In this document: positions 7,387-41,216 of the stretch, one piece after another
Numbering within the stretch: the stretch's first letter is position 1
Layout of the letters: the number at the start of each line of letters is the position of its first letter
From: a virus
Direction: 5' to 3' (one strand)
IMG/VR virus record: IMGVR_UViG_3300046747_000434
Span: 1-41,216 of that record
Length of the DNA: 41,216 bases
Notes under the pieces: generated by a model
What the model was told of the DNA's origin: nothing
Databases searched by the model: none
The model's input: only the letters and a program-made list of their open reading frames with translations
Made by a program: the position numbers and the translations under genes

Positions 7387-7914
7387 GTGGCTACCGTATC
7401 TACCACCCGCAGAGCTGGGCAGGCGTTCGACGCCTTCGAGGCTGAGCAGTACGCGCAGGCCCGGGCGAGCGGCCAGACGATCGGCGTGTCGGCTACGTCG
7501 GCTGGAGTGGGGATGGCAGCGGCCAAGACGCTGGAGAAAGACCCGGAGGTGCGCGCGCGTATTGCCGAGCTGCGCGAGGGGTCGAAGACGATCACCACGG
7601 TCAGCCCAGCGTGGATTCTCGAGCAGCTCAAGATCAACGCACTCGAGTCGCGCGAGGGCCGCGAGTACACGACGATCAACAAGGCCGGCGAGCCTGTCGA
7701 GGTGACGAGCGCGCCGAACTACAAGGCGTCGAACGAAGCGCTCCAGATGATGTATGAGATCATCAAGACAGACGACAGCATACTGAACGGTCTGGGCGGC
7801 GGACTGCCCGCGGGTTCGAAGGCGATGATGCAGGAGATCCAGAAGCGCCTGAGCGCGCCGACTCCGCAGCCGATCATCATCACGCAGCACGAAGCCGTCG
7901 AGGCTGAGCTGTGA
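7387..7914 (+). CDS. terS: Terminase small subunit
   Basis: Sits immediately upstream of TerL. N-terminal HTH-like segment, then VSPAWILEQLKINALES, which resembles Terminase_2/P27-type small subunits. GTG start. Confidence 0.7.
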   Translation: MATVSTTRRAGQAFDAFEAEQYAQARASGQTIGVSATSAGVGMAAAKTLEKDPEVRARIAELREGSKTITTVSPAWILEQLKINALESREGREYTTINKAGEPVEVTSAPNYKASNEALQMMYEIIKTDDSILNGLGGGLPAGSKAMMQEIQKRLSAPTPQPIIITQHEAVEAEL

Positions 7915-9536
7915 TGGCCAACATCCCAGTAGTGATGGGCGCCGCCATTGGGTCGCCCATGGCGTACCGGCCGAAGTGGGTGCCGAGCAACATCCCGTGG
8001 GGCGAGTGCGACCGTGAGCGGCGCATGATGCTGAACGCTGCATGGAGCGCAGGCGTTCTCGGTCATTTGCTCACGCCGTCGCAGCTGCGCACTGACGCCA
8101 AGATGGACGCCTGGAGCGATGCGGTAGGCGATAACCAGAAGCTCAGCGACCTGGACCTGCGCAAGAAGCTGATGGGCCGCGTGTACGTGCTCGACAGCGC
8201 GCGACGCTGGGGCAAGTCGCGCTTGCTACTCAAGAGGGCGCTGGCGAAGGGGATCCGCAACAAGGGCTGGCGGATGATCTATTTCGGCCCCATCAAAAAG
8301 GAGCTGCTGAAGATCGTGCATCCGCTCATGGCTGAGCTGGTGCGCGACTGCCCGCCCGGACTGCTCGGCAAGCACCAGGGGCCAGACTGGGTGGAGAAGG
8401 AGGAGGCCTACGTTTTCAAAACAGGCTCACGTCTCGAGATCATCGGCCTGGACAAGAATCCAGACGGCGCGCGCGGAACTGGCCTTGACGCTGCGTTTGG
8501 CGATGAAGTCGCGTTCTTCGACAAGCTCGAATACCTGATCAACAGCATCATCATGCCGCAGGTCATGGGCCGGCAGCACGCGCGGCTCGAGTGCGCGAGT
8601 ACGCCGCCCGTCAGCCCGTCGCACCACTGGTCACAGAACATGGTGCCGCACGCGGTCGCGGACGGTGCGCACGACAAGCGCACGATCGAAGAGGCCGATC
8701 AGTACGACACTTCGGAGATCGAGGAGATCATCCGCCAGGTTGGCGGAGACATGGGACGCAAGCACACCGCCGTGCGTCGCGAGCTGTTCTGCGAGCACGT
8801 CACCGACGAAACGCTAGCGGTCATCCCGGAGTTCAACTACGTCAAGAGCGAGGTGGTTCGAGAAATCACCGCCCCCACGTGGCGCGACTGCTACGCGTCC
8901 ATGGATCCCGGCTGGAAAGACCACACCGCCGTGCTGTTCGGGTACTGGCATTTCGAAGAGCAGGCCTGCGTGATCGAAGACGAGATCTGCGCACCGCGCC
9001 TGAACAGCGGCGATCTCGCTGCCGAGGTGAAGCGCAAGGAGGCGTTCCTGTGGGACGGCGTCAAGCGCCGCTCGTCGCAGGGGGGCCACCCGAAGCCACA
9101 GCCGTTCCTGCGCGTTACCGACCACGATCCGCGCCTGCAGCAAGATCTCGCGATGGCGCACGGGCTCGTATTCATTCCGACGCTCAAGGACAACCTCGAG
9201 CAGCAGGTCAACGCCGTGCGTGTGGCCTTTGCCAACAAGAAGATCATCATCCACCCACGTTGCACGAAGCTTGTGCTTCACCTGCAAAACGCGGTGTGGA
9301 AGAACAGGGACGCTCACATCTTCGCTCGCGAGGGCGGGAATCTCGGGCATTTCGATACGCTCGCCGCGCTCGTGTACCTGTGGCGCGTGATGCAACAGCA
9401 CAAGAACCGCAACCCAGCACCAATCGAGGCGCGCATTTATGCTCAGCGAGAAAACACCCACCAGCACCCCACGGGAAAGCCCGCTCCCCACGCCAGCCGC
9501 TGGACGCGACGCGGAAGGAGCTACTACGTCCGCTGA
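7914..9536 (+). CDS. terL: Terminase large subunit
   Basis: Walker A-like DSARRWGKS and Walker B-like LDAAFGDEVAF, plus a C-terminal nuclease-sized domain. TGATG overlap with terS (an alternative GTG lies at 7911). Confidence 0.9.
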   Translation: MANIPVVMGAAIGSPMAYRPKWVPSNIPWGECDRERRMMLNAAWSAGVLGHLLTPSQLRTDAKMDAWSDAVGDNQKLSDLDLRKKLMGRVYVLDSARRWGKSRLLLKRALAKGIRNKGWRMIYFGPIKKELLKIVHPLMAELVRDCPPGLLGKHQGPDWVEKEEAYVFKTGSRLEIIGLDKNPDGARGTGLDAAFGDEVAFFDKLEYLINSIIMPQVMGRQHARLECASTPPVSPSHHWSQNMVPHAVADGAHDKRTIEEADQYDTSEIEEIIRQVGGDMGRKHTAVRRELFCEHVTDETLAVIPEFNYVKSEVVREITAPTWRDCYASMDPGWKDHTAVLFGYWHFEEQACVIEDEICAPRLNSGDLAAEVKRKEAFLWDGVKRRSSQGGHPKPQPFLRVTDHDPRLQQDLAMAHGLVFIPTLKDNLEQQVNAVRVAFANKKIIIHPRCTKLVLHLQNAVWKNRDAHIFAREGGNLGHFDTLAALVYLWRVMQQHKNRNPAPIEARIYAQRENTHQHPTGKPAPHASRWTRRGRSYYVR

Positions 9537-27706: not shown

Positions 27707-27871
27707 ATGGACAACGAAGCGAAGCAAGCATACACGCGGATGACAGACGCTATCACCGTGCTCTCGACGATCGCGATGCAGCTGCGCGACGCGGTGACCG
27801 ATCTGCGCGCGGTGTGCCAGGTACTCGCCATGCAGGGCGATCGGGGGGTGAGAGATGCACCCGCAGAGTGA
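27707..27871 (+). CDS. Hypothetical small protein, 54 aa
   Basis: Hand-translated. AAAGGAG RBS before the ATG. Overlaps the endolysin start. Confidence 0.35.
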   Translation: MDNEAKQAYTRMTDAITVLSTIAMQLRDAVTDLRAVCQVLAMQGDRGVRDAPAE

Positions 27872-28280
27872 CACCGCACTACTCGTGCCTGCGTTCTGGG
27901 AGCGCCTGGAGCCTGCCTTGCGCGAGCTGCGCGGCCAGGGATTCCACCCTGTGGTTCACGAGACGCTACGCTCACTGGCGCGCTCTGAGGCGCTCGTTGC
28001 AGCCGGTAAGAGTAAGTCCGTGGGCCCGTCGATGCACTGCTACGGACTGGCGGCAGACGTCGTCTGCGGAGTGCACGGGTATGACTGCAAGCGTCACCAC
28101 TGCCCGTTCTTCACCGAGTACGGGCTTGCCGTCGAGCGTCACCGTTTGACATGGGGCGGGCGGTGGAAGACGCTGGTCGACTCGCCGCACAGCCAGGCCA
28201 TACCCGTAGCGCTCCAAAACAAGGCGCGCGCGATGCCCGCTGACCAGCTAGACGCCTTCGTGCGCAGCGTACTCGGCTGA
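27855..28280 (+). CDS. Endolysin, peptidase M15 (VanY / L-Ala-D-Glu peptidase-like)
   Basis: Zn-ligand pattern H..(SMHCYGLAADV)..(DSPHSQ), typical of M15 cell-wall peptidases. Confidence 0.8.
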   Translation: MHPQSDTALLVPAFWERLEPALRELRGQGFHPVVHETLRSLARSEALVAAGKSKSVGPSMHCYGLAADVVCGVHGYDCKRHHCPFFTEYGLAVERHRLTWGGRWKTLVDSPHSQAIPVALQNKARAMPADQLDAFVRSVLG

Positions 28281-28657: not shown

Positions 28658-29505
28658 GCCACCCCCGGGTACAGCCTGTCCAGCAATTCCACGCCCGGGC
28701 AGGCCATGTCGCGCAGTACCTGTAGGCACAGGTTAGCGCTCAGGACGAGGTACCGCTCACCAGCAGCGTAAGCAGCAGCGTCAGCAGCGCGAGCAGCGCG
28801 AGCAGCGCGAGCAGCGGAAGCAGCAGCGTAAGCAGCGCGAGCAGCAGCGTTAGCAGCAGCGTAAGCAGCAGCGTAAGCAGCAGCGTCAGCAGCGTTAGCA
28901 GCAGCGTAAGCAGCAGCGTAAGCAGCGCGAGCAGCAGCGTTAGCAGCAGCGTAAGCAGCAGCGTAAGCAGCAGCGTCAGCAGCGTTAGCAGCAGCGTAAG
29001 CAGCAGCGTAAGCAGCGGAAGCAGCAGCGTCAGCAGCGGGAGAAGCAGCGGAAGCAGCAGCGTAAGCAGCGGAAGCAGCGTCCTTGGTCCCCTCTTTTTC
29101 GCAGCGGTCGGCGGCCTCGCGGCAACGTTGGTGCACTGGCGAGGTGGCAGTGAACAGTTCGCGGAACAGCGTGGGCAGCAGCACACGGATGTGCGCCTCG
29201 GCGATACGGCGCGCGAAGTCCAACCCGTCGAGCGTATCGCTACCGAGCTGGGCGACTGCGATGTCGCGAAGCCCACGCGCGCGGGACTCGTCGCTCTCCC
29301 AGCGCTGCGAGTCGTTCAGCGTGATCTTGAAGCCGCGCACAACGGGGTTGACGCAGGCAGGGTCGTCGCCGAAGGGGAGGCCCATGGCTTGGCTGATGGC
29401 GGCCTCCACGCACATCTTGCCGTCCGGCTTACCCGCGCCAGTGCAAAGACCGCGCGCAAGTATCGCTTCGAATACAGGTTGGTTGAATGCTGATAGATCG
29501 GTCAT
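28654..29505 (-). CDS. Ala-rich periodic-repeat protein, paralog P2 (283 aa)
   Basis: N-terminal domain MTDLSAFNQPVFEAILARGLCTG..., a long AAYAAAYAAANAADAAAY... repeat, and a conserved ERYLVLSANLCLQVLRDMACPGVELLDRLYPG tail. Confidence 0.85.
   Translation of the reverse strand: MTDLSAFNQPVFEAILARGLCTGAGKPDGKMCVEAAISQAMGLPFGDDPACVNPVVRGFKITLNDSQRWESDESRARGLRDIAVAQLGSDTLDGLDFARRIAEAHIRVLLPTLFRELFTATSPVHQRCREAADRCEKEGTKDAASAAYAAASAASPAADAAASAAYAAAYAAANAADAAAYAAAYAAANAAARAAYAAAYAAANAADAAAYAAAYAAANAAARAAYAAASAARAARAARAADAAAYAAGERYLVLSANLCLQVLRDMACPGVELLDRLYPGVA
28756..29083 (-). repeat. GCT-codon repeat array in P2, including a perfect 90-bp tandem duplication (28831-28920 = 28921-29010)
   Basis: The block agcagcgcgagcagcagcgttagc...gcagcgta recurs exactly 90 nt later. 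Several reading frames are open across the array. Confidence 0.85.
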
Positions 29506-30431
29506 GTCAGGTTGCCTTTCGTGAGCTTCTGAATCTCGTGTCGCACCACCAAGTAGCTAGCCCATAAGCGCTGAGCTACCGGACGCTGGTGAAAGTCCGG
29601 CTTCGCGTACATCACCTCGCGCAGGAAGCCAGGTGGCACCTCGGTGTACTTCTTGCCGGGGTACCGCTTCGCATCGGCGGCGAAAACTGGCGGATCCATC
29701 GGGGGCGCGTGCAGTCCGTGCTCGTCTGCTGCGCCGGAGGCGATGCTGAACGCGTTGAATATCTCATCGCACAGGTCGTTGTGGCGGCCCACCCAGTCGA
29801 CGTTAGTAGTCGCAGAAGATTCCGTGCGGGACGTCGTCCCAGTCACCGAGATCGCAGCTGGGGCACCGACCGTTGGCGCGGAGCCTGGTGCCGTGTTCTG
29901 GGCATTCTTCTGGGGCTGCTCTTTTGGGCGCTCCTCGTGGTCACCTCCACCGGCCACGTCGTCAAGCGACCGCGCAACCTTGCCCGGGCGTTTCGCGGCA
30001 TGCTCGAACCGCTCGTTAGAGTCGTGCTCAGGGTCCTCTGTGACGCCACCAGCGAGCTGGCAGACGCGCAGCATGGCCGTGCGGTCGAGCGCTGTGCTCG
30101 CGATGTATGCGGCCTTGTCGCCAGCGTGAGTTGTCGCCGCGAAGGCGTACTCACGAATCTCACCGCTCTCGTGGATCAGCTCGAACACTCCGCGCCACAA
30201 CCAGACAATACTCGCTCCAGCCTTGTCGGCAACAGGCTGCGCGCACACGAAGATCACATCTTTTTGCACGAGGGTGAGACCGTACGTGAGTAGCGCCTCC
30301 CGTGCGCCGCTTGTCAGCACGTGTTCGTGGCCGACGTATGGGTAGTTCTGATGCGCGTTTTTGCCCGCCTTGTTGACGACAACCGCGCACGCGATGCGCG
30401 CCAGTTTCAGCGCTTTCCCAAGTTCGCTCAC
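29502..30431 (-). CDS. erf: Erf-like single-strand annealing protein
   Basis: N-terminal KNAHQNYPYVGHEHVLTSGAREALLTYGLTLVQ and DKAAYIASTALDRTAML fit the ERF pattern. A disordered C-terminal half. GTGA coupling to the exonuclease gene. Confidence 0.7.
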   Translation of the reverse strand: MSELGKALKLARIACAVVVNKAGKNAHQNYPYVGHEHVLTSGAREALLTYGLTLVQKDVIFVCAQPVADKAGASIVWLWRGVFELIHESGEIREYAFAATTHAGDKAAYIASTALDRTAMLRVCQLAGGVTEDPEHDSNERFEHAAKRPGKVARSLDDVAGGGDHEERPKEQPQKNAQNTAPGSAPTVGAPAAISVTGTTSRTESSATTNVDWVGRHNDLCDEIFNAFSIASGAADEHGLHAPPMDPPVFAADAKRYPGKKYTEVPPGFLREVMYAKPDFHQRPVAQRLWASYLVVRHEIQKLTKGNLT

Positions 30432-31144
30432 AGCTCACCTCTCTTTAGCCTGTCGACCTCAGCCATGAAAATAGGCACTTCAGCGCGAATCCTCGCGATC
30501 ACGGCTTCGTGCCTACGAATCGGGTACGCGCGCAGCTTGAAGCACGGTGCGCAGAGATGCAGCACGAGTAGCGCGCCCCACTCCGCGCCGGTCACCGCCA
30601 GCTCAGTCTGTACCTGCAGCTGGTAGTCCAGCGGCGGCCCCTTAGACCACACAGCAGTGGACTCCGCGCCGCTTTTCTGCGGCTTGCAGTCCTCGGTAGC
30701 CTGGCACGTGGTGGCCTTGATCTGCACGATTGAGAGGCCGAGGTCATCCGCGTTCACGTCGACGCTCTCGACGTGCGGAACGTACAGCTCAAACTTTCCT
30801 CCGGCCTTGCGCCAGCGCACACGCAGATCACTTTGTGGAGTGAGCAACAGGTAGTCCGGAGTCGCACCGAGCAGAGGACACGACGCGTCCACGCGCAGCA
30901 CGCCAGCCTCGTGCAGCTTCCACCCGAACTTGCGCATCGCCATACGTGCAATCGCCGGCTCGAGATCGAGGCCGATGTCGGTCTGCTCGCTACCGGCCCA
31001 CTCCTCGGCGAGTCCGGCCTTCTCCATGCGCAATTGCTCGCGCGTCTTGTACTTCGACTCGCCAAGTATAGCGGCAACGTCGCTGGCAGTTACGAGCAGC
31101 CGGCGCGCAGCGAGCCACGCTGCGCGGTCTGAGCTATGTGTCAT
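30428..31144 (-). CDS. YqaJ-type (lambda Exo-like) recombination exonuclease
   Basis: RRLLVTASDVAAILGESKYKTREQLRMEKAG is a YqaJ N-terminal motif. Adjacent to the annealase gene. Confidence 0.8.
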   Translation of the reverse strand: MTHSSDRAAWLAARRLLVTASDVAAILGESKYKTREQLRMEKAGLAEEWAGSEQTDIGLDLEPAIARMAMRKFGWKLHEAGVLRVDASCPLLGATPDYLLLTPQSDLRVRWRKAGGKFELYVPHVESVDVNADDLGLSIVQIKATTCQATEDCKPQKSGAESTAVWSKGPPLDYQLQVQTELAVTGAEWGALLVLHLCAPCFKLRAYPIRRHEAVIARIRAEVPIFMAEVDRLKRGEL

Positions 31145-31284
31145 CCGGCCCGCCTCCTGACATTGAGAACGAAATGGTTAGCTACGCCAAGAGCGACCAT
31201 CAGCGCGCAACCAAATGCAGATCCATAAACAGCCTGCGATACGGCTGCGCCAAGCCAACACGCACCGCTTAGCCACAGCAGCAT
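31141..31284 (-). CDS. Small hydrophobic (membrane) protein, 47 aa
   Basis: MLLWLSGACWLGAAVSQAVYGSAFGCALMVALGVANHFVL. TGATG overlap with the P3 stop and ATGA overlap with the exonuclease start. Confidence 0.5.
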   Translation of the reverse strand: MLLWLSGACWLGAAVSQAVYGSAFGCALMVALGVANHFVLNVRRRAG

Positions 31285-32018
31285 CACGCTGCCCCCGGGT
31301 ACAGGCGATCCAGCAGCTCCACACCTGGGCAGGCCATGTCGCGCAGTACCTGTAGGCACAGGTTAGCGCTCAGCACAAGGTAACGCTCACCAGCAGCTCC
31401 AGCAGCGCGAGCAGCTCCAGCAGCGTAAGCAGCAGCGGAAGCAGCGTAAGCAGCGTAAGCAGCAGCAGCGCGATCAGCGGAAGCAGCGTAAGCAGCGTAA
31501 GCAGCAGCAGCGCGATCAGCGTAAGCAGCGCGAGAAGCGTAAGCAGCAGCGTGAGCAGCGTCAGCAGCGCAAGCAGCAGCGTGATAAGCAGCGTGCTTGC
31601 TCCCCTCTTTTTCGCAGCGGTCGGCGGCTTCGCGGCAGCGTTGGTGCGCTGGTGACGCGTCGGTGAACAGCTCGCGGAACAGCGTGGGCAGCAGCACACG
31701 GATGTGCGCCTCGGCGATACGGCGCGCGAAGTCCACACCATCGAGCGTGTCGCTACCGAGTTGCGCGACTGCGATGTCGCGAAGCCCACGCGCGCGGGAA
31801 TCGTCGCTCTCCCAGCGTGGAGAGTCGTTGAGCGTGATCTTGAATCTGCGCACAGCAGGGTGGACACACGCGGGGTCATCGCCGAACGGGAGGCCCATCG
31901 CCTGCGAGATAGCGGCCTCCACGCACATCTTGCCATCGGCGCGTCCCACGCCAGTGCACAACCCACGCGCAAGTATCGCCTCGAATACAGGTTGGTTGAA
32001 TGCTGATAGATCGGTCAT
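31284..32018 (-). CDS. Ala-rich periodic-repeat protein, paralog P3 (244 aa)
   Basis: The ATG at 32018 follows a GGAG RBS and overlaps the upstream stop (ATGA). Same N- and C-terminal modules as P2 and P4. Confidence 0.85.
   Translation of the reverse strand: MTDLSAFNQPVFEAILARGLCTGVGRADGKMCVEAAISQAMGLPFGDDPACVHPAVRRFKITLNDSPRWESDDSRARGLRDIAVAQLGSDTLDGVDFARRIAEAHIRVLLPTLFRELFTDASPAHQRCREAADRCEKEGSKHAAYHAAACAADAAHAAAYASRAAYADRAAAAYAAYAASADRAAAAYAAYAASAAAYAAGAARAAGAAGERYLVLSANLCLQVLRDMACPGVELLDRLYPGAA
31391..31592 (-). repeat. GCT-codon repeat array in P3
   Basis: Encodes AAYHAAACAADAAHAAAYASRAAYADRAAAAYAAYAASADRAAAAYAAYAASAAAYAAGAARAAGAAG. Contains an internal duplication of the DRAAAAYAAYAAS unit. 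Confidence 0.8.
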
Positions 32019-32392
32019 TTGGAGTCTCCAATCCACGGTCCACGACCTAGGCGTTCGCGACCTTCGTCTGACATTGCAAAGCTGACCATCTTATCCTGTG
32101 AGTCGGCCACCCAAGCGCGTCCGCTCGCTTGGCAGTCCCATCCGGTGTAATCGCAGCCGGCTTCGAGGTAGAAGTAGCGCCCGTCCTTGAGGCGACCACA
32201 GCACACCCACGAAGGACCGTCGTTTTCGCCGTCGCTGCTCGCGTAGATCACGTCCACGTCGGCAAGCCCGAACGTATCCACGCTGCAATCACTACCCGCC
32301 GACAGCTCCGGCACCCCGGCGTTGTACGCGCCGCCAGAAAAACCAAAGGCCTCTTTCCAGTCGAAGTCGTTTATCATCTGCTCGAAATTCAT
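32015..32392 (-). CDS. Hypothetical protein, 125 aa (MNFEQMINDFDWKEAFGF...)
   Basis: AGGTGAGG RBS before the ATG at 32392. Coupled to P3. Confidence 0.6.
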   Translation of the reverse strand: MNFEQMINDFDWKEAFGFSGGAYNAGVPELSAGSDCSVDTFGLADVDVIYASSDGENDGPSWVCCGRLKDGRYFYLEAGCDYTGWDCQASGRAWVADSQDKMVSFAMSDEGRERLGRGPWIGDSK

Positions 32393-33711: not shown

Positions 33712-34176
33712 ATGAGTAAGGACAGCGACGTAAGATTCACCCCACAGCACGTGCTCAACGTCGTGCGCGAGTTCGATGAGATTGTGTGCGACCCGTGCAC
33801 GGTTGCGAGCAACCCGGCGGGGGCTAATCTGTTCTACACTGAGGCCGATAACGGGCTTGTGCAGCCGTGGGGCGGAGGGCTTACGTTCGTCAACAACCCA
33901 TACTCACGTGGTCAGATCTTTCCGTGGGCTGAGAAATGCGCGCTAGAAGCCAAGATCGGACTGGAGATCATCCAGCTCATCCCGGCTGACATGTCGACGA
34001 TATACACCAAGTTCCTGTTCGGTAAGGCGAACGCTGTTGCGTTCTGGGACAAGCGCATCGTCTTCGACGGCTCCAATGGCGCGAAGTTCGGAAGCGCTTT
34101 TTGGTACTTTGGCGATCGGCAAGGCCGCTTCAAACGCGTATTCGAGCCACACGCCACCGTGCTATTCCTCCGGTAG
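33712..34176 (+). CDS. dam: Phage-type DNA N6-adenine methyltransferase (Dam family, PF05869-like)
   Basis: RFTPQHVLNVV...VCDPC...GLVQPWGGGLTFVNNPYSRG (an NPPY-like motif)...IQLIPADMST. No cognate endonuclease is present. Confidence 0.8.
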   Translation: MSKDSDVRFTPQHVLNVVREFDEIVCDPCTVASNPAGANLFYTEADNGLVQPWGGGLTFVNNPYSRGQIFPWAEKCALEAKIGLEIIQLIPADMSTIYTKFLFGKANAVAFWDKRIVFDGSNGAKFGSAFWYFGDRQGRFKRVFEPHATVLFLR

Positions 34177-34179
34177 ACC

Positions 34180-35781
34180 ATGCACTACGCGCATACAGAC
34201 CTGTTCGCCATGGTAGAGCCTGACCGCGTCGCTGAGATGCCTGCGCTCGGTTTGCGTTATTATCAACAAGAGGCGCGCGAAGCCGTTGCGCGTGTGCACG
34301 AGGCGCATCGCGGCGCGCTTGTGGTGTTGCCTACGGGCACGGGTAAGAGCAGATTGCTGGGCGCTATCACATGGGATGGCCACATCAGGCATCAGCGCGC
34401 ACTCGTGCTGTGCCCGACGATTACGCTTGTGCGCCAGATGTACAGCGACTTGCGCAAGCTCGGCCTGAACGTCGAGATGGAGCAGGCGTCGAACCGTGCA
34501 CGAAGGCCGCTGCCACCGGTCGTGGTGGCATGCGTCGCGTCCATGCGTGGCGACCGGCTAGCTTCGTTCGATCCGTACGACTTCGACCGCATCGGAGTGG
34601 ACGAGGCGCACCGCTGCATCTCGCCGCTGTATGAGGCGATCTTCGCGCACTTCCACGCGGCCAAGCTGATCGGGCTCACCGCAACGCCTTCGCGCTCTGA
34701 TGGCGTGTCGCTTGGCAACGTCTTCGAAGAGACGGCCTACACTATGACCATGCTGCGCGCCATCAGCGAAGGGTGGCTCGTGCCGTTGCGCTTCAAGACG
34801 GCGGTCACGGACTTCGACCCGAAGGCGCTGCGCACGCTGGCCGGCGAGGTTGACCCGTCGAGTGTGGCAGCGGAGATCACGCGCTCCGGGCTCTTGCACG
34901 AGGCTGCCAACACGCTGGCAGAGCTGAGCGCTGGCGAGCGCACGGTCGCGTTCCTGCCCACCGTGGCAAGCTCGAAGGCGTTCGTCGCTGAGCTGATCGC
35001 GCGCGGCATCGAGGCTGCGCACGTGGATGCGAGCACGCCCGAGCAAGCGCGTAACGAGATGTTCGCCGCGTTCGCAGCGGGGACCACGCGCGTGATCGCG
35101 AACGTGGGGATCCTGTGCGAGGGCTGGGATATGCCCGCGTGCTCGGTGGTCGCGCTGCTCAACCCCACCAAGAGCTGGCAGCGCCTTACCCAGATGATCG
35201 GCCGCATCACGCGCCTGGCGCCCGGCAAAGAGTTCGCCCTCGTGCTCGACTTCTGCCCGGGCAGGCTGCGCAAAGGCCGCCTGGCGAGCCCTGCGGACGC
35301 GCTTGCGGGCAAGATGCTGGACGATGCGGTGCACGACCAGATGGCCACGGAAGGCGATCTCGCCACGGCTATCGCGGACGCTGAGACGAGCGCAGCGGAG
35401 ATCGAAGAGAAGAAGCGCAAGGCGCTCGAGAAGGCCGAGGCGCGCAAGCAGCGTGTAAGAGAGCTGGCAGAGCTGGCGCGAAAAAAGAAGTACCGCTACG
35501 GCGTCCAGGACCACGATGCGGCGGCCATCCTGGGCGGCGCTGGTGGCGAGCAGCCTGGCGAGATGCGCTCGCACGACGTCGAGCCGTCAGAGGACGAGCT
35601 GCGCAAGGCGGCTGGCATCTGCAGCGTCAAGCAGAGCCATATCCTGCGACGGTGGGGGCTCAACCCGCGCATGTCGCGCGCGCTCGCTGGCGAGGTGATG
35701 GGCGCGCTCTCCGAGACGAACTGGCAGGTGTTGCCCGAGCGGATCAAAAACAACCCAATTTTCAAAGCGACCAGCGTATGA
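34180..35781 (+). CDS. Superfamily-2 DEAD/DEAH-box helicase
   Basis: Walker A VLPTGTGKS, motif II VDEAHR and motif III LTATP, plus a helicase C-terminal domain (ANVGILCEGWDMP, QMIGRITR). Confidence 0.9.
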   Translation: MHYAHTDLFAMVEPDRVAEMPALGLRYYQQEAREAVARVHEAHRGALVVLPTGTGKSRLLGAITWDGHIRHQRALVLCPTITLVRQMYSDLRKLGLNVEMEQASNRARRPLPPVVVACVASMRGDRLASFDPYDFDRIGVDEAHRCISPLYEAIFAHFHAAKLIGLTATPSRSDGVSLGNVFEETAYTMTMLRAISEGWLVPLRFKTAVTDFDPKALRTLAGEVDPSSVAAEITRSGLLHEAANTLAELSAGERTVAFLPTVASSKAFVAELIARGIEAAHVDASTPEQARNEMFAAFAAGTTRVIANVGILCEGWDMPACSVVALLNPTKSWQRLTQMIGRITRLAPGKEFALVLDFCPGRLRKGRLASPADALAGKMLDDAVHDQMATEGDLATAIADAETSAAEIEEKKRKALEKAEARKQRVRELAELARKKKYRYGVQDHDAAAILGGAGGEQPGEMRSHDVEPSEDELRKAAGICSVKQSHILRRWGLNPRMSRALAGEVMGALSETNWQVLPERIKNNPIFKATSV

Positions 35782-35954: not shown

Positions 35955-36937
35955 CCGAACCGCGCGTAACTGTCGTGCAGGAACAGCGCATTATCGGCTG
36001 GCCGGACGAGCCCGGAGCCGAGCCGAGACCACAGGATCGCGCTTACGTGCTGCCGATCTCCAAGGCACTCGCGCGCAGCTACACGACAGACGCTCATTTC
36101 GCGCAGTACGTGACGCCCAACGCACGACGCCTCAAGACAGCAGCAGCATCGCTCCTACGCGTGCGGCTTGGCGTGATCGTGCTCGATCTCGACTGCGCTG
36201 AGGCACACGCGAGCGGTGATCCCGCCCCGGAGTCGTGGCGCATCGACGTGCGTCGCCAGGCAACGCAGCTACTTCGCGCCCACGGCCGTGGCTACTACTA
36301 CGAGACGCGGGGCGGGGCGCGCATCGTGTACCTGCAGCCTGCGCCCTACAAGATCAGCTCAGCCGCTGATGCGCTCCAGTGGCGCCAGGACTACGCCGTC
36401 ACGTGCGCATGGATGCGCCGCAGCTTCGGGCTCGAGGTGGACGTCGCGTGCTCCGACTGGCCTCGGTTGTTCCGCCTGCCACGCGCCACCCGGAAAGGCA
36501 GCACGGTGTCTGAGGACTACCTCACGCTTGGCCGCTCCGACAACATCGGCGCGCTGAGCTTCACGCCAGAGACGTGCGATCTCGACCTGGCCCGTGAGCT
36601 ACTCCCCCGTGCATTCGACGAGCGGCGCAGCGCATTCGCGCCCGAGTTGGCAGATGGCAACGGCGTGCTGTTCCATGCGTTGCGCGCGCGCGGCGCGATA
36701 CTGCGGCCGATGGGCGGCAAGGCGTACGTGATCCGCTGTCCCAACGAAGCGCAGCACAGCGCAGGCGGGAAGGCGAAAGACCGCGCAACCGTGCTGTATC
36801 TGCCAAGTACGGGGCAGTCGATAGGCCTGATATGGTGCCTCCACGCGCACTGCGGCAATACGAAACCAGTTGACTGGCTGAAGCATTTCAGCCGTGATGA
36901 GCTGAACGCGGCTGATGCTGCGATGAAGGGGAAGTGA
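35951..36937 (+). CDS. Primase/primase-polymerase-like replication protein with a C-terminal zinc-binding motif
   Basis: VIVLDLDC acidic motif, ETRGGARIVY and FRLPRATR, plus C-terminal CPNEAQHS...CLHAHCG, as seen in phage/plasmid primases. Confidence 0.5.
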   Translation: MTEPRVTVVQEQRIIGWPDEPGAEPRPQDRAYVLPISKALARSYTTDAHFAQYVTPNARRLKTAAASLLRVRLGVIVLDLDCAEAHASGDPAPESWRIDVRRQATQLLRAHGRGYYYETRGGARIVYLQPAPYKISSAADALQWRQDYAVTCAWMRRSFGLEVDVACSDWPRLFRLPRATRKGSTVSEDYLTLGRSDNIGALSFTPETCDLDLARELLPRAFDERRSAFAPELADGNGVLFHALRARGAILRPMGGKAYVIRCPNEAQHSAGGKAKDRATVLYLPSTGQSIGLIWCLHAHCGNTKPVDWLKHFSRDELNAADAAMKGK

Positions 36938-37449
36938 TGCCGAAACCGATACTCGTGTTGCTACAGGGTGAGATGATGCCGATCAAGCACGCTGCCGACA
37001 AGCTGGGTGTGGCGCAAATCACTGTGAAGCGCCGCCACCTGCGTGGTGAGCCGGTGGACATGCCGCTCTATCACTCCGGACGTGGGCGCCGTGGTGGCGT
37101 CAAACACGGTCCGGCCGACTTCGACATTGACGCTGAATGGGCTGACGAGTGCGTTGCCGAATCCGTGCGCCTGCATCCCGACGGCATGACGCTGCACGAG
37201 GTTGGCGTGTTGGTCGGACTGAGTCGCGAGCGCATCCGGCAGATCGAGGAGAGCGCGCTGCGCAAGATCCGCCTGCTCGGGCTGAGCGAACGAGAGGTGA
37301 AGCGCGCGCTGTTCGCCGACCTGCAAGTCGCGCACGAGTCGTTTGACGAACGCCACCCACCGGGTCACTGGGGCGTTGTTGCGATCGCTCCGCATTGCCG
37401 TCTTCAGCGCCCTAGCGCTAGGCCATCCGGTTTGCTGGTGACGACGTGA
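36937..37449 (+). CDS. Sigma-70 region-4-like HTH protein
   Basis: MTLHEVGVLVGLSRERIRQIEESALRKIR is a canonical sigma region 4.2 motif. No region 2 was recognised. Confidence 0.6.
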   Translation: MPKPILVLLQGEMMPIKHAADKLGVAQITVKRRHLRGEPVDMPLYHSGRGRRGGVKHGPADFDIDAEWADECVAESVRLHPDGMTLHEVGVLVGLSRERIRQIEESALRKIRLLGLSEREVKRALFADLQVAHESFDERHPPGHWGVVAIAPHCRLQRPSARPSGLLVTT

Positions 37450-39118: not shown

Positions 39119-39853
39119 ATGACACGACTACTGATTTTGGCAGCGCTGCTGTTCGCCCCCGCGCTCGCCAGCGCGCAGATCAATGTGAGCATCGCCGGCC
39201 TGTCGAGCCTGCAGGTGGATGGCATCGCTCCGGGGAACACGTGCGCCGACACGGTAAGCGGAACCCTGACGTGCACGTACGGAGGGTTTTACTTCCAGGC
39301 CACGCCGTTGCTTGGCACCGCGACGCGAGAGTGCCAGTGCTACCCCGGCAACACCGGTCCAACCGGCGCTACGGGGGCCACAGGGGCGGCTGGCTCTTCT
39401 GGTGCGACAGGAGCGACGGGCCCCGCTGGAGCGGCATCTGGTGGCTTCTACCGCGACTCGAGCGGCGATCAGGTGATCGGCCTGTATCGCGTCGACAGCG
39501 TTCCGAACTACTGGGATGGTGACGTGTGGTGGCAGGTCAGCTCGAGTACTGGACTCGCTACGCCAGACGACATAGGTCAGGCGCTGCGGTACACAGGAGC
39601 ATCGTGCACAGGTAGCGTGTTCGGATCCGACTTCGGAGGCAACCGAACGTACCAGTATCGCACGAAGATGGGCACGCTCGAGATATGGGGGCCGGTGGGC
39701 AGCTTCTCATACGCCGGCACCTGCTACGGGTGGAATGGATCGAGCTGCACTGCCATTTCGTGCCTCAGTGGTCCACTGGTGGAGCTGGCGCATTTCACCA
39801 GCCCACCAGATTTGAGCAGCTACGACTTGCCGCTCACGTTTGTGGGGGACTGA
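39119..39853 (+). CDS. Secreted collagen-like (Gly-X-Y repeat) protein, 244 aa
   Basis: Signal peptide MTRLLILAALLFAPALASAQ. GNTGPTGATGATGAAGSSGATGATGPAGAAS is a run of about 10 uninterrupted G-X-Y triplets. Confidence 0.8.
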   Translation: MTRLLILAALLFAPALASAQINVSIAGLSSLQVDGIAPGNTCADTVSGTLTCTYGGFYFQATPLLGTATRECQCYPGNTGPTGATGATGAAGSSGATGATGPAGAASGGFYRDSSGDQVIGLYRVDSVPNYWDGDVWWQVSSSTGLATPDDIGQALRYTGASCTGSVFGSDFGGNRTYQYRTKMGTLEIWGPVGSFSYAGTCYGWNGSSCTAISCLSGPLVELAHFTSPPDLSSYDLPLTFVGD

Positions 39854-40462: not shown

Positions 40463-41214
40463 CACGTTACCCCCGGGTACAGGCGATCCAGCAGCTCCAC
40501 ACCTGGGCAGGCCATGTCGCGCAGTACCTGTAGGCACAGGTTAGCGCTCAGCACAAGGTAACGCTCACCAGCAGCTCCAGCAGCGGAAGCAGCGTCAGCA
40601 GCAGCGCGAGCAGCGGAAGCAGCAGCGTAAGCAGCGCGAGCAGCAGCGTTAGCAGCAGCGTAAGCAGCAGCGTAAGCAGCAGCGTCAGCAGCGTTAGCAG
40701 CAGCGTAAGCAGCAGCGTAAGCAGCGGAAGCAGCAGCGTCAGCAGCGGGAGAAGCAGCGGAAGCAGCAGCGTAAGCAGCGGAAGCAGCGTCCTTGGTCCC
40801 CTCTTTTTCGCAGCGGTCGGCGGCCTCGCGGCAACGTTGGTGCACTGGCGAGGTGGCAGTGAACAGTTCGCGGAACAGCGTGGGCAGCAGCACACGGATG
40901 TGCGCCTCGGCGATACGGCGCGCGAAGTCCACACCATCGAGCGTGTCGCTACCGAGTTGCGCGACTGCGATGTCGCGAAGCCCACGCGCGCGGGAATCGT
41001 CGCTCTCCCAGCGTGGAGAGTCGTTGAGCGTGATCTTGAATCTGCGCACAGCAGGGTGGACACACGCGGGGTCATCGCCGAACGGGAGGCCCATCGCCTG
41101 CGAGATAGCGGCCTCCACGCACATCTTGCCATCGGCGCGTCCCACGCCAGTGCACAACCCACGCGCAAGTATCGCCTCGAATACAGGTTGGTTGAATGCT
41201 GATAGATCGGTCAT
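40462..41214 (-). CDS. Ala-rich periodic-repeat protein, paralog P4 (250 aa); a mosaic of P3 and P2
   Basis: The N-terminal 119 aa are identical to P3. The linker and repeat are identical to P2 minus one 90-bp unit. The 3' end is identical to P3. Confidence 0.85.
   Translation of the reverse strand: MTDLSAFNQPVFEAILARGLCTGVGRADGKMCVEAAISQAMGLPFGDDPACVHPAVRRFKITLNDSPRWESDDSRARGLRDIAVAQLGSDTLDGVDFARRIAEAHIRVLLPTLFRELFTATSPVHQRCREAADRCEKEGTKDAASAAYAAASAASPAADAAASAAYAAAYAAANAADAAAYAAAYAAANAAARAAYAAASAARAAADAASAAGAAGERYLVLSANLCLQVLRDMACPGVELLDRLYPGVT
40568..40791 (-). repeat. GCT-codon repeat array in P4
   Basis: Same unit structure as the P2 array, but with a single copy of the 90-bp unit. Confidence 0.85.
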
Positions 41215-41216
41215 TT

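Follow-up and report, generated by a model that had tools for sequence, protein, structure and literature searches.

Introduction

Bacterial contingency loci, as described by Moxon and colleagues, carry a slippage-prone tract within a gene and show heritable, reversible variation, and coding minisatellites, or variable-number tandem repeats (VNTRs), are found in surface and adhesin proteins such as the streptococcal alpha C, M, and collagen-like Scl proteins and yeast FLO1. Type I fish antifreeze proteins, which are more than 60% alanine, form long helices with a periodic polar stripe of period 11 and have isoforms that vary in repeat number. Here, we analyzed the alanine-rich arrays of four genes, P1 to P4, in a 41,216-nucleotide stretch of viral DNA (IMG/VR record IMGVR_UViG_3300046747_000434, positions 1 to 41,216), referred to below as the window. 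These arrays are very likely coding minisatellites or microsatellites that turn over rapidly, in frame, and are subject to conversion between paralogues, with a very recent 90-bp duplication in P2 and an alanine codon purity that stems from a recent seed unit.

What the arrays have in common with contingency loci is an in-gene repeat tract that would mutate by slippage much faster than the sequence around it. Contingency loci, however, are bacterial and switch expression through out-of-frame units or promoter spacing, whereas the phage arrays change by multiples of 3 nt, with the helical projection altered. The original prediction had likened the arrays to contingency loci, and the comparison stands for hypermutability but not for an on/off switch: we found no switching of expression by frameshift or promoter spacing, as the arrays are internal to their open reading frames (ORFs) and their changes are in frame. 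Like the arrays, the VNTR surface proteins have in-frame repeats set head to tail in nearly identical DNA copies, vary in length between strains, recombine between paralogues, and contain a domain that lengthens with copy number, but the phage units are shorter (9 to 12 nt) and nested, the variation affects codon runs, units, and blocks, and the product is ~250 amino acids (aa) long. Type I antifreeze proteins resemble the arrays in their alanine-rich helices, polar stripe, and variable repeat number, yet there is no sequence homology, the period is 3 to 4 instead of 11, the arrays are attached to a conserved globular core, and evidence of ice binding is absent.

In humans, codon-pure repeats, including those of CTG/GCT, show length polymorphism; codon homogeneity is a mark of trinucleotide-slippage tracts, and CTG/GCT runs are among the most length-polymorphic (PMC1557989). 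Eukaryotic polyalanine and polyglutamine tracts are homopolymers, whereas the phage arrays are interrupted every two to three alanines and are predicted to form ordered helices. The mechanism is of a known kind, and what is new is its carrier, an undescribed phage protein family in which a core with no significant match in the PDB bears a hypervariable alanine-helix insert. This genome holds four copies of the array, one of them on an unrelated N-terminal domain (N-domain), and the length of the insert varies between otherwise identical genomes.

A perfect tandem duplication in the P2 array

The P2 gene (28654 to 29505, minus strand; 283 aa) encodes an N-domain, a 106-aa alanine array (28762 to 29079), and a C-terminal tail. 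Its array consists of 31 units of 10 types. In all four arrays, a unit (9 to 12 nt) is made of two or three GCT codons and, after them, a single "punctuation" codon, for the most part NAC, TCC, CGC, or GGA. The original prediction had reported that the 90-nt block at 28831 to 28920 is repeated exactly at 28921 to 29010, and our base-for-base comparison found 0 differences between them. In gene order, copy 1 lies at 28921 to 29010 (minus strand, P2 codons 166 to 195) and copy 2 at 28831 to 28920 (minus strand, codons 196 to 225). The duplicated block is in frame and does encode the one extra 30-aa unit that had been claimed, with the register offset by two residues. Self-comparison extends the perfect period-90 identity to 200 nt, or 2.2 copies (28818 to 29017, minus strand). 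Self-matches in the array reach 110 nt, at an offset of 90, while in 500 shuffles of the array's own 9- to 12-nt units, the longest self-match averaged 35.5 nt (standard deviation, 5.5; maximum, 58). The low complexity of the P2 array does not account for the 90-bp duplication.

Translation of P4 (40462 to 41214, minus strand; 250 aa; array at 40570 to 40788) confirmed that it carries the 90-bp unit, and thus the 30-aa unit, only once. P3 (31284 to 32018, minus strand; array at 31392 to 31592) has 244 aa from an MTDL start, with the probable start at 32018 in an ORF that reaches 32036, and contains an internal duplication of its own, as had also been noted, with ADRAAAAYAAYAAS present twice; Tandem Repeats Finder describes it as period 42, 2.8 copies, and 94% matches at 31433 to 31550. 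The same program returned four arrays in the window (~929 to 1150, 28761 to 29070, 31391 to 31593, and 40568 to 40790), with periods of 9/12/21/33/45 across all four. All are head-to-tail series of short units whose DNA copies are nearly identical, as in known coding tandem-repeat loci. Outside the arrays, an imperfect 17-bp direct repeat (GCACAAGGTAACGCTCA, twice, 82% matches) is present at 31356 to 31389 and 40534 to 40567, in the conserved C-tail coding region of P3 and P4.

Exchange between paralogues and length change in relatives

P4 is identical to P3 over 349 nt (40868 to 41216 and 31672 to 32020) and to P2 over 315 nt (40617 to 40931 and 28908 to 29222). The two stretches overlap by 64 nt, and the 3′ tail of P4 is P3-like again. 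Exact P3 and P2 sequences are joined in P4 as a mosaic in which the array belongs to a clean patch of conversion, and the conversion between arrays that had been predicted from the sequence is borne out. The fourth gene, P1 (867 to 1667, minus strand; 266 aa; array at 930 to 1148), has a C-tail unlike those of P2 to P4, and no homology of its N-domain to the P2-type N-domain was detected (hhalign against the P2-type profile, probability 37%). Its array nevertheless uses the codon dialect of the others, GCT plus TAC/CGC/GGA/TCC/GAC, and shares with the P3 array an exact 55-nt match, encoding AASAAAYAAGAARAAGAA, despite the non-homologous N-domains. This match is longer than those in all 100 unit-shuffle nulls (maximum, 39). 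Together, these identities show exchange of arrays between paralogues.

Close relatives of this phage are absent from the collections searched, and length polymorphism between otherwise near-identical genomes was found among related loci. Over 1.4 kb, the only difference between loci L039 and L041, from different metagenomes, is a 96-nt in-frame array indel flanked by 19-nt direct repeats; between L056 and L061, again compared over ~1.4 kb, it is a 78-nt in-frame array indel flanked by 52-nt direct repeats. Likewise, three sets of proteins (P0003/4/5, P0018/20, and P0119/120/121) have identical N-domains and tails with different arrays. A comparison of array lengths among related phages had been suggested as a check, and it yielded the predicted variation. 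The length changes preserve the frame, with indels or duplications of 3, 42, 78, 90, and 96 nt, and in-frame duplication and deletion occur at the scale of single codons, single units, and multi-unit blocks of 42 to 96 nt. The differences between arrays are mainly indels.

In some homologues, the array stands in a shifted frame (P0009, P0060, P0065, P0122, L094, and L099, with PPTPP/RRRL, GGV, RRRRL, PTPPP, and LLFCC runs). The shift may stem from sequencing errors or from genuine plus/minus 1 slips by which the gene would be inactivated.

Codon purity in the window and in related loci

Every alanine codon in the four arrays is GCT (222 of 222: 50 in P1, 76 in P2, 44 in P3, and 52 in P4), a codon that accounts for 15% of the alanine codons in 15 long ORFs of the same genome, which prefers GCG (45%) and GCC (26%), with GCA at 14%; the GC content of the genome is 63%. 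This count, which the original prediction had proposed as a check of its claim that array alanines are exclusively GCT, confirmed the purity. A further claim, that several reading frames stay open through the arrays, is true but modest, as stop-free frames number three of six in P2 and P4 and four of six in P1 and P3. We considered an overlapping gene in another frame and excluded it, because nothing is conserved in the open alternative frames: their residues follow the codon used, with Leu/Cys/Ser for GCT and Pro/Arg/Gly for GCC and GCG.

We then extracted the gene and counted its codons in 101 related loci, of which 76 distinct arrays served for pattern statistics. Some arrays are GCT-pure, as in the window (L003, 134/134; L006, 84/84; L064, 60/60), and the array of Caulobacter phage Cr30, the sampled 2.2-kb locus of which has 39% GC, is also all GCT. 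Others are GCC-pure (L051, 69/69; L004, 42/42), are built on GCG (L008, L033, and KPhi1), or are built on GCA (L057, 45/49). A further group is strictly patterned, with GCC-GCT x24 (L022), GCT-GCG x17 (L010), GCG-GCT-GCG x18 (L020), GCC-GCG-GCT-GCC-GCC x9 (L101), and GCA-GCC-GCA (L071). Across the 76 arrays, 4.9% of 3438 alanine codons depart from the modal pattern of their array, while the N-domains of the array genes use all four alanine codons. Codon purity is family-wide and tied to no single codon. The pattern switches between loci whose N-domains are 81 to 90% identical, e.g., L018 (CTC in third positions) and L026 (ACA), from which it follows that the arrays are quickly rebuilt or replaced. 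We interpret codon purity as a probable reflection of descent from a recent seed unit, not of codon preference or long-term conservation. The identity of the two 90-bp copies, the lineage-specific codon patterns of the 76 arrays, and the in-frame indels of 96 and 78 nt all agree with the earlier proposal that the repeat evolves at the DNA level.

Some relatives have a second array-bearing gene within 6 kb (L070/L073/L076, 4656 to 4910; L071, 5567 to 5848; L072, 2480 to 2677; L028, 6753 to 6971). The codon pattern of these second array genes (e.g., of the DAARAAAWAAAG type) is usually unlike that of the main array, and therefore, the common dialect of the four window arrays is not universal.

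A model of array turnover

We propose that replication slippage or unequal recombination between short direct repeats gives rise to the duplications and deletions and that gene conversion accounts for the exchange of arrays between paralogues. Array turnover would outpace point substitution, and alanine codons would be identical within an array because all of them descend from one recent seed unit. The phage encodes its own Erf-like annealing protein and RecE-like exonuclease, which may assist in this process.

Several observations weigh against such a model. The adjacency of Erf/RecE to P2-type genes is not conserved in the 101 related loci, so the involvement of these proteins in array turnover is a conjecture. 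Exceptional hairpin stability of the array single-stranded DNA was not supported (z = -0.33 and +2.89 versus dinucleotide shuffles). All length-polymorphic pairs are metagenome assemblies, and P1-like genes in cultured Xanthomonas phages, the arrays of which are less pure and Ser-rich, have lengths that hardly vary inside each group: three encode 284 aa, one encodes 285 aa (with one extra GCG), and five encode 327 aa. Since these less pure arrays are nearly constant in length, the rate of turnover evidently depends on repeat purity. In addition, rapid turnover alone leaves unexplained the retention of 4 to 14 kinds of punctuation residue per array (76 arrays), and the arrays may be functionless; P0006, P0031, and P0071 are nearly array-less.

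Protein family and predicted structure

P2, P3, and P4 share an N-domain of ~140 aa, the alanine array, and the tail GERYLVLSANLCLQVLRDMACPGVELLDRLYPG. A single-sequence search found 118 homologues of the P2-type N-domain, and a profile search of 5.8 billion proteins brought the family to at least 1,986 clusters and added no named relatives. There are 215 P2-type loci in IMG/VR and 21 in genome bins, mostly of Alphaproteobacteria. Nearly all members are annotated as "hypothetical protein," a Pfam domain was recorded in 0 of the 120 clusters listed, and the only cultured-phage relative is AGS80886 of Caulobacter phage Cr30. Relatives of the P1 type come from Xanthomonas phages (KPhi1 and NEB7 groups) and from metagenomes. 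In alignments, ten N-domain positions are invariant (G19, G23, C32, E34, D47, P49, C51, V52, N64, and D65), and the family signature, which joins these residues to the C-tail motif YLxLSAxLxLxxLxxxxSPG, is complete in P2, P3, and P4 but not in P1. Our literature search found no prior description of alanine-rich repeat proteins in phages; the family is undescribed, large, and uncharacterized.

Searches with P1 to P4 returned no match in Pfam at E <= 1, only sub-threshold low-complexity matches in NCBIfam, and none in PADLOC or in a PDB sequence-profile search. PHROG 3416, of unknown function, matched P1 (E 2.9e-10 over residues 129 to 245, mostly array), matched P3 and P4 weakly, and did not match P2. 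In two homologues, P0014 and P0093, the N-domain is of the P2 type but the C-terminal tail of the P1 type (...QADKLIELLA...), which hints at module shuffling across alanine arrays; the arrays may bridge recombination between different genes.

AlphaFold modeled P4 as all-helical (pLDDT 91.5, pTM 0.90), with pLDDT >95 in the N-domain and C-tail and 73 to 88 in the array helices (residues 141 to 154, 158 to 180, and 184 to 211). In the model of P2, which has 33 residues more than P4, the core is unchanged, and the array helices are longer and less confident. The predicted arrangement is a conserved core, composed of the N-domain and C-terminal helices, that bears an alanine-rich helical hairpin of variable length, and changes in array length are predicted to alter its projection without disturbing the core. 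In the window arrays, punctuation residues stand 3 to 4 apart, with a period of 3.4 to 3.75 residues, because of which they would line one helical face. Foldseek found nothing significant in the PDB (best E 1.2) and, in BFVD, only the Cr30 homologue and one uncultured-phage protein. A weak all-helical fold match to Imm-5-like domain proteins (BFVD rank 8, E 1.9, probability 0.33) did not lead to an assignment; membership was rejected, as no Pfam model matches P1 to P4 at the threshold above.

We speculate that these are accessory proteins that touch a host or phage partner through the projecting hairpin and that variation in its length and surface tunes or diversifies the contact. No signal peptide or other sequence evidence for a surface location was found.

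Alternative explanations

The alternative that survives best concerns function and leaves the mechanism as proposed: the same slippage could act on an array that is a tolerated low-complexity linker with no adaptive role. Array length in the family runs from 0 to ~118 aa (median, 48), and some members have almost no array, which favors a spacer. One subgroup has period-2 arrays of the AYAY or ASAS type, without helical periodicity; most arrays in the family, on the other hand, show alpha-helical spacing of their punctuation. The searches of Pfam, NCBIfam, PADLOC, and PDB profiles gave no function or partner, but the great majority of the ~2,000 family clusters have an array, as does a second family with an unrelated N-domain, four copies are retained in a 41-kb genome, and punctuation is diverse while synonymous sites are uniform. 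A spacer without a role is a possible explanation, though we find it doubtful.

A more ambitious view of the same turnover is that the alanine arrays are a slippage-driven generator of adaptive diversity and also provide bridges of homology across which unrelated N- and C-terminal modules are shuffled. The hairpin would tolerate any register, its length and punctuation face would be redrawn by microsatellite turnover and paralogue conversion, and the protein could possibly track variable host targets such as defense proteins. The shuffling part draws on the contrast between P1 and P2 to P4 here, with further hints from P0014 and P0093. We hold this view to be rather unlikely as a whole. If the variation were adaptive, it would be a form of protein-surface diversification without reverse transcriptase, alongside diversity-generating retroelements (DGRs) and tail-fiber mosaicism, and a natural instance of a helical module able to absorb in-frame changes of arbitrary length.

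Codon selection would explain purity differently, with GCT maintained for translation (tRNA pool, elongation speed, or mRNA structure) and repeat dynamics secondary. GCT is rare in this genome and nonetheless universal in its array alanines, while punctuation codons follow the third-position C preference of the genome, with 82 of 97 in the window ending in C and those for Y/D/N/H all NAC. The array of Cr30 is also GCT, in a locus of far lower GC content than this genome. Moreover, synonymous minority forms occur in 8 of 62 punctuation codons and in 0 of 221 alanine codons (Fisher p = 3.7e-6; the exact alanine count is 222). However, TCT, GAT, and TAT, the minority forms among the punctuation codons, share a final T and are better read as new punctuation that may have arisen from GCT via a single base change. 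No tRNA genes are present in the window, and the folding energy of the arrays is unexceptional. Relatives reach equal purity with GCC, GCG, GCA, or fixed multi-codon patterns, whatever the GC content of the genome, and codon choice switches between close relatives. A translational preference specific for GCT is ruled out by these other codons in other lineages, and codon selection in general is very unlikely to be the main cause of purity.

These genes are plainly difficult to assemble, and mis-assembly of short reads could in principle account for the P2 duplication of 90 bp, the mosaic structure of P4, or the array-length variation among relatives. The contig itself closes through a paralogue repeat, as positions 1 to 127 are identical to 41090 to 41216 and to 31894 to 32020 in P3; because of this terminal overlap, the contig closes on itself, being circular or terminally overlapping, with a genome of ~41,089 bp, and the closure point sits within the 349-nt exact repeat common to P3 and P4. 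The sole other assembly of the same phage that we found, Logan contig SRR26077926 (L113), is 100% identical over 29476 to 31321 and stops at the P2 and P3 paralogue sequences. Contig ends cut the gene in 22 of 80 IMG/VR relatives (L004, L009, L012, L015 to L018, L021, L025, and L027, among others), and the GenBank record of phage XapPhi2 (L110) ends inside an array. Assemblies break systematically at the genes of this family. Since the arrays disrupt short-read assembly, an array length taken from a public phage genome is best regarded as a lower bound.

The duplication and the mosaic themselves are harder to explain in this way. The k-mers of a de Bruijn contig all come from reads. If the 127-bp terminal overlap reflects k = 127, as we assume, a 127-mer within the 200-nt periodic tract cannot come from the 110-nt tract of P4, and the junction 127-mers of P4, which span the 64-nt stretch common to three genes, must also exist in reads. 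Under the same assumption, any true copy number of two or more would assemble as exactly the 200-nt periodic tract observed, so that the two 90-bp copies in P2 would be a minimum. In the relatives, the L039/L041 indel is flanked only by its 19-nt repeat, too short for collapse at usual k, and the long allele of this pair is identical in five independent assemblies. Arrays are also found in complete isolate genomes. We consider it most improbable that an artefact produced the features described here, and we retain in-frame turnover and conversion as their origin.

Finally, next to no credence can be given to DGR-like mutagenesis, in which adenine-free alanine codons would be spared and AAC-type punctuation diversified to NNC: the C-ending punctuation, the NAC codons, and the lack of adenine in GCT fit it, but no reverse transcriptase was matched in 40 window ORFs (20, including the four P genes, were searched against both Pfam and PHROGs, a further 10 against Pfam alone, and another 10 against PHROGs alone), a template/variable repeat pair differing specifically at adenines is absent (P2 and P4 are identical where aligned), the GCA arrays of L057 and L071 are pure although adenine mutagenesis would scramble them, and the arrays differ from each other by indels in the main.

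Genome context

The window is a phage sequence, with a large terminase at 7911 to 9536, a helicase at 34180 to 35781, and an M15 endolysin at 27855 to 28280. The phage is new relative to the collections searched: a megablast of the window against phages gave no match, exact look-ups of the P1 to P4 proteins gave none, and the best match of the terminase shares only 24% identity with it. The gene order on the minus strand is P3, exonuclease, Erf, and P2, and P1 and P4 adjoin across the contig junction. The exonuclease, between P3 and P2, is RecE/YqaJ-like (30428 to 31144, minus strand; PHROG 434, E 1e-31, with Pfam YqaJ recorded on the identical Logan gene), and the Erf-like single-strand annealing protein lies immediately upstream of P2 (29502 to 30431, minus strand; PHROG 155, E 4e-10).

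The plus-strand early/middle region encodes a Dam-like N6-adenine methyltransferase and a small sigma-70 region-4 protein (33712 to 34176 and 36934 to 37449). Just upstream of P4, a tail-fiber-like ORF at 39119 to 39853 contains a short Gly-X-Y stretch resembling collagen (Pfam Collagen, E 6.5e-4) and several PHROG tail-fiber matches, making it another repeat-bearing gene of this phage.

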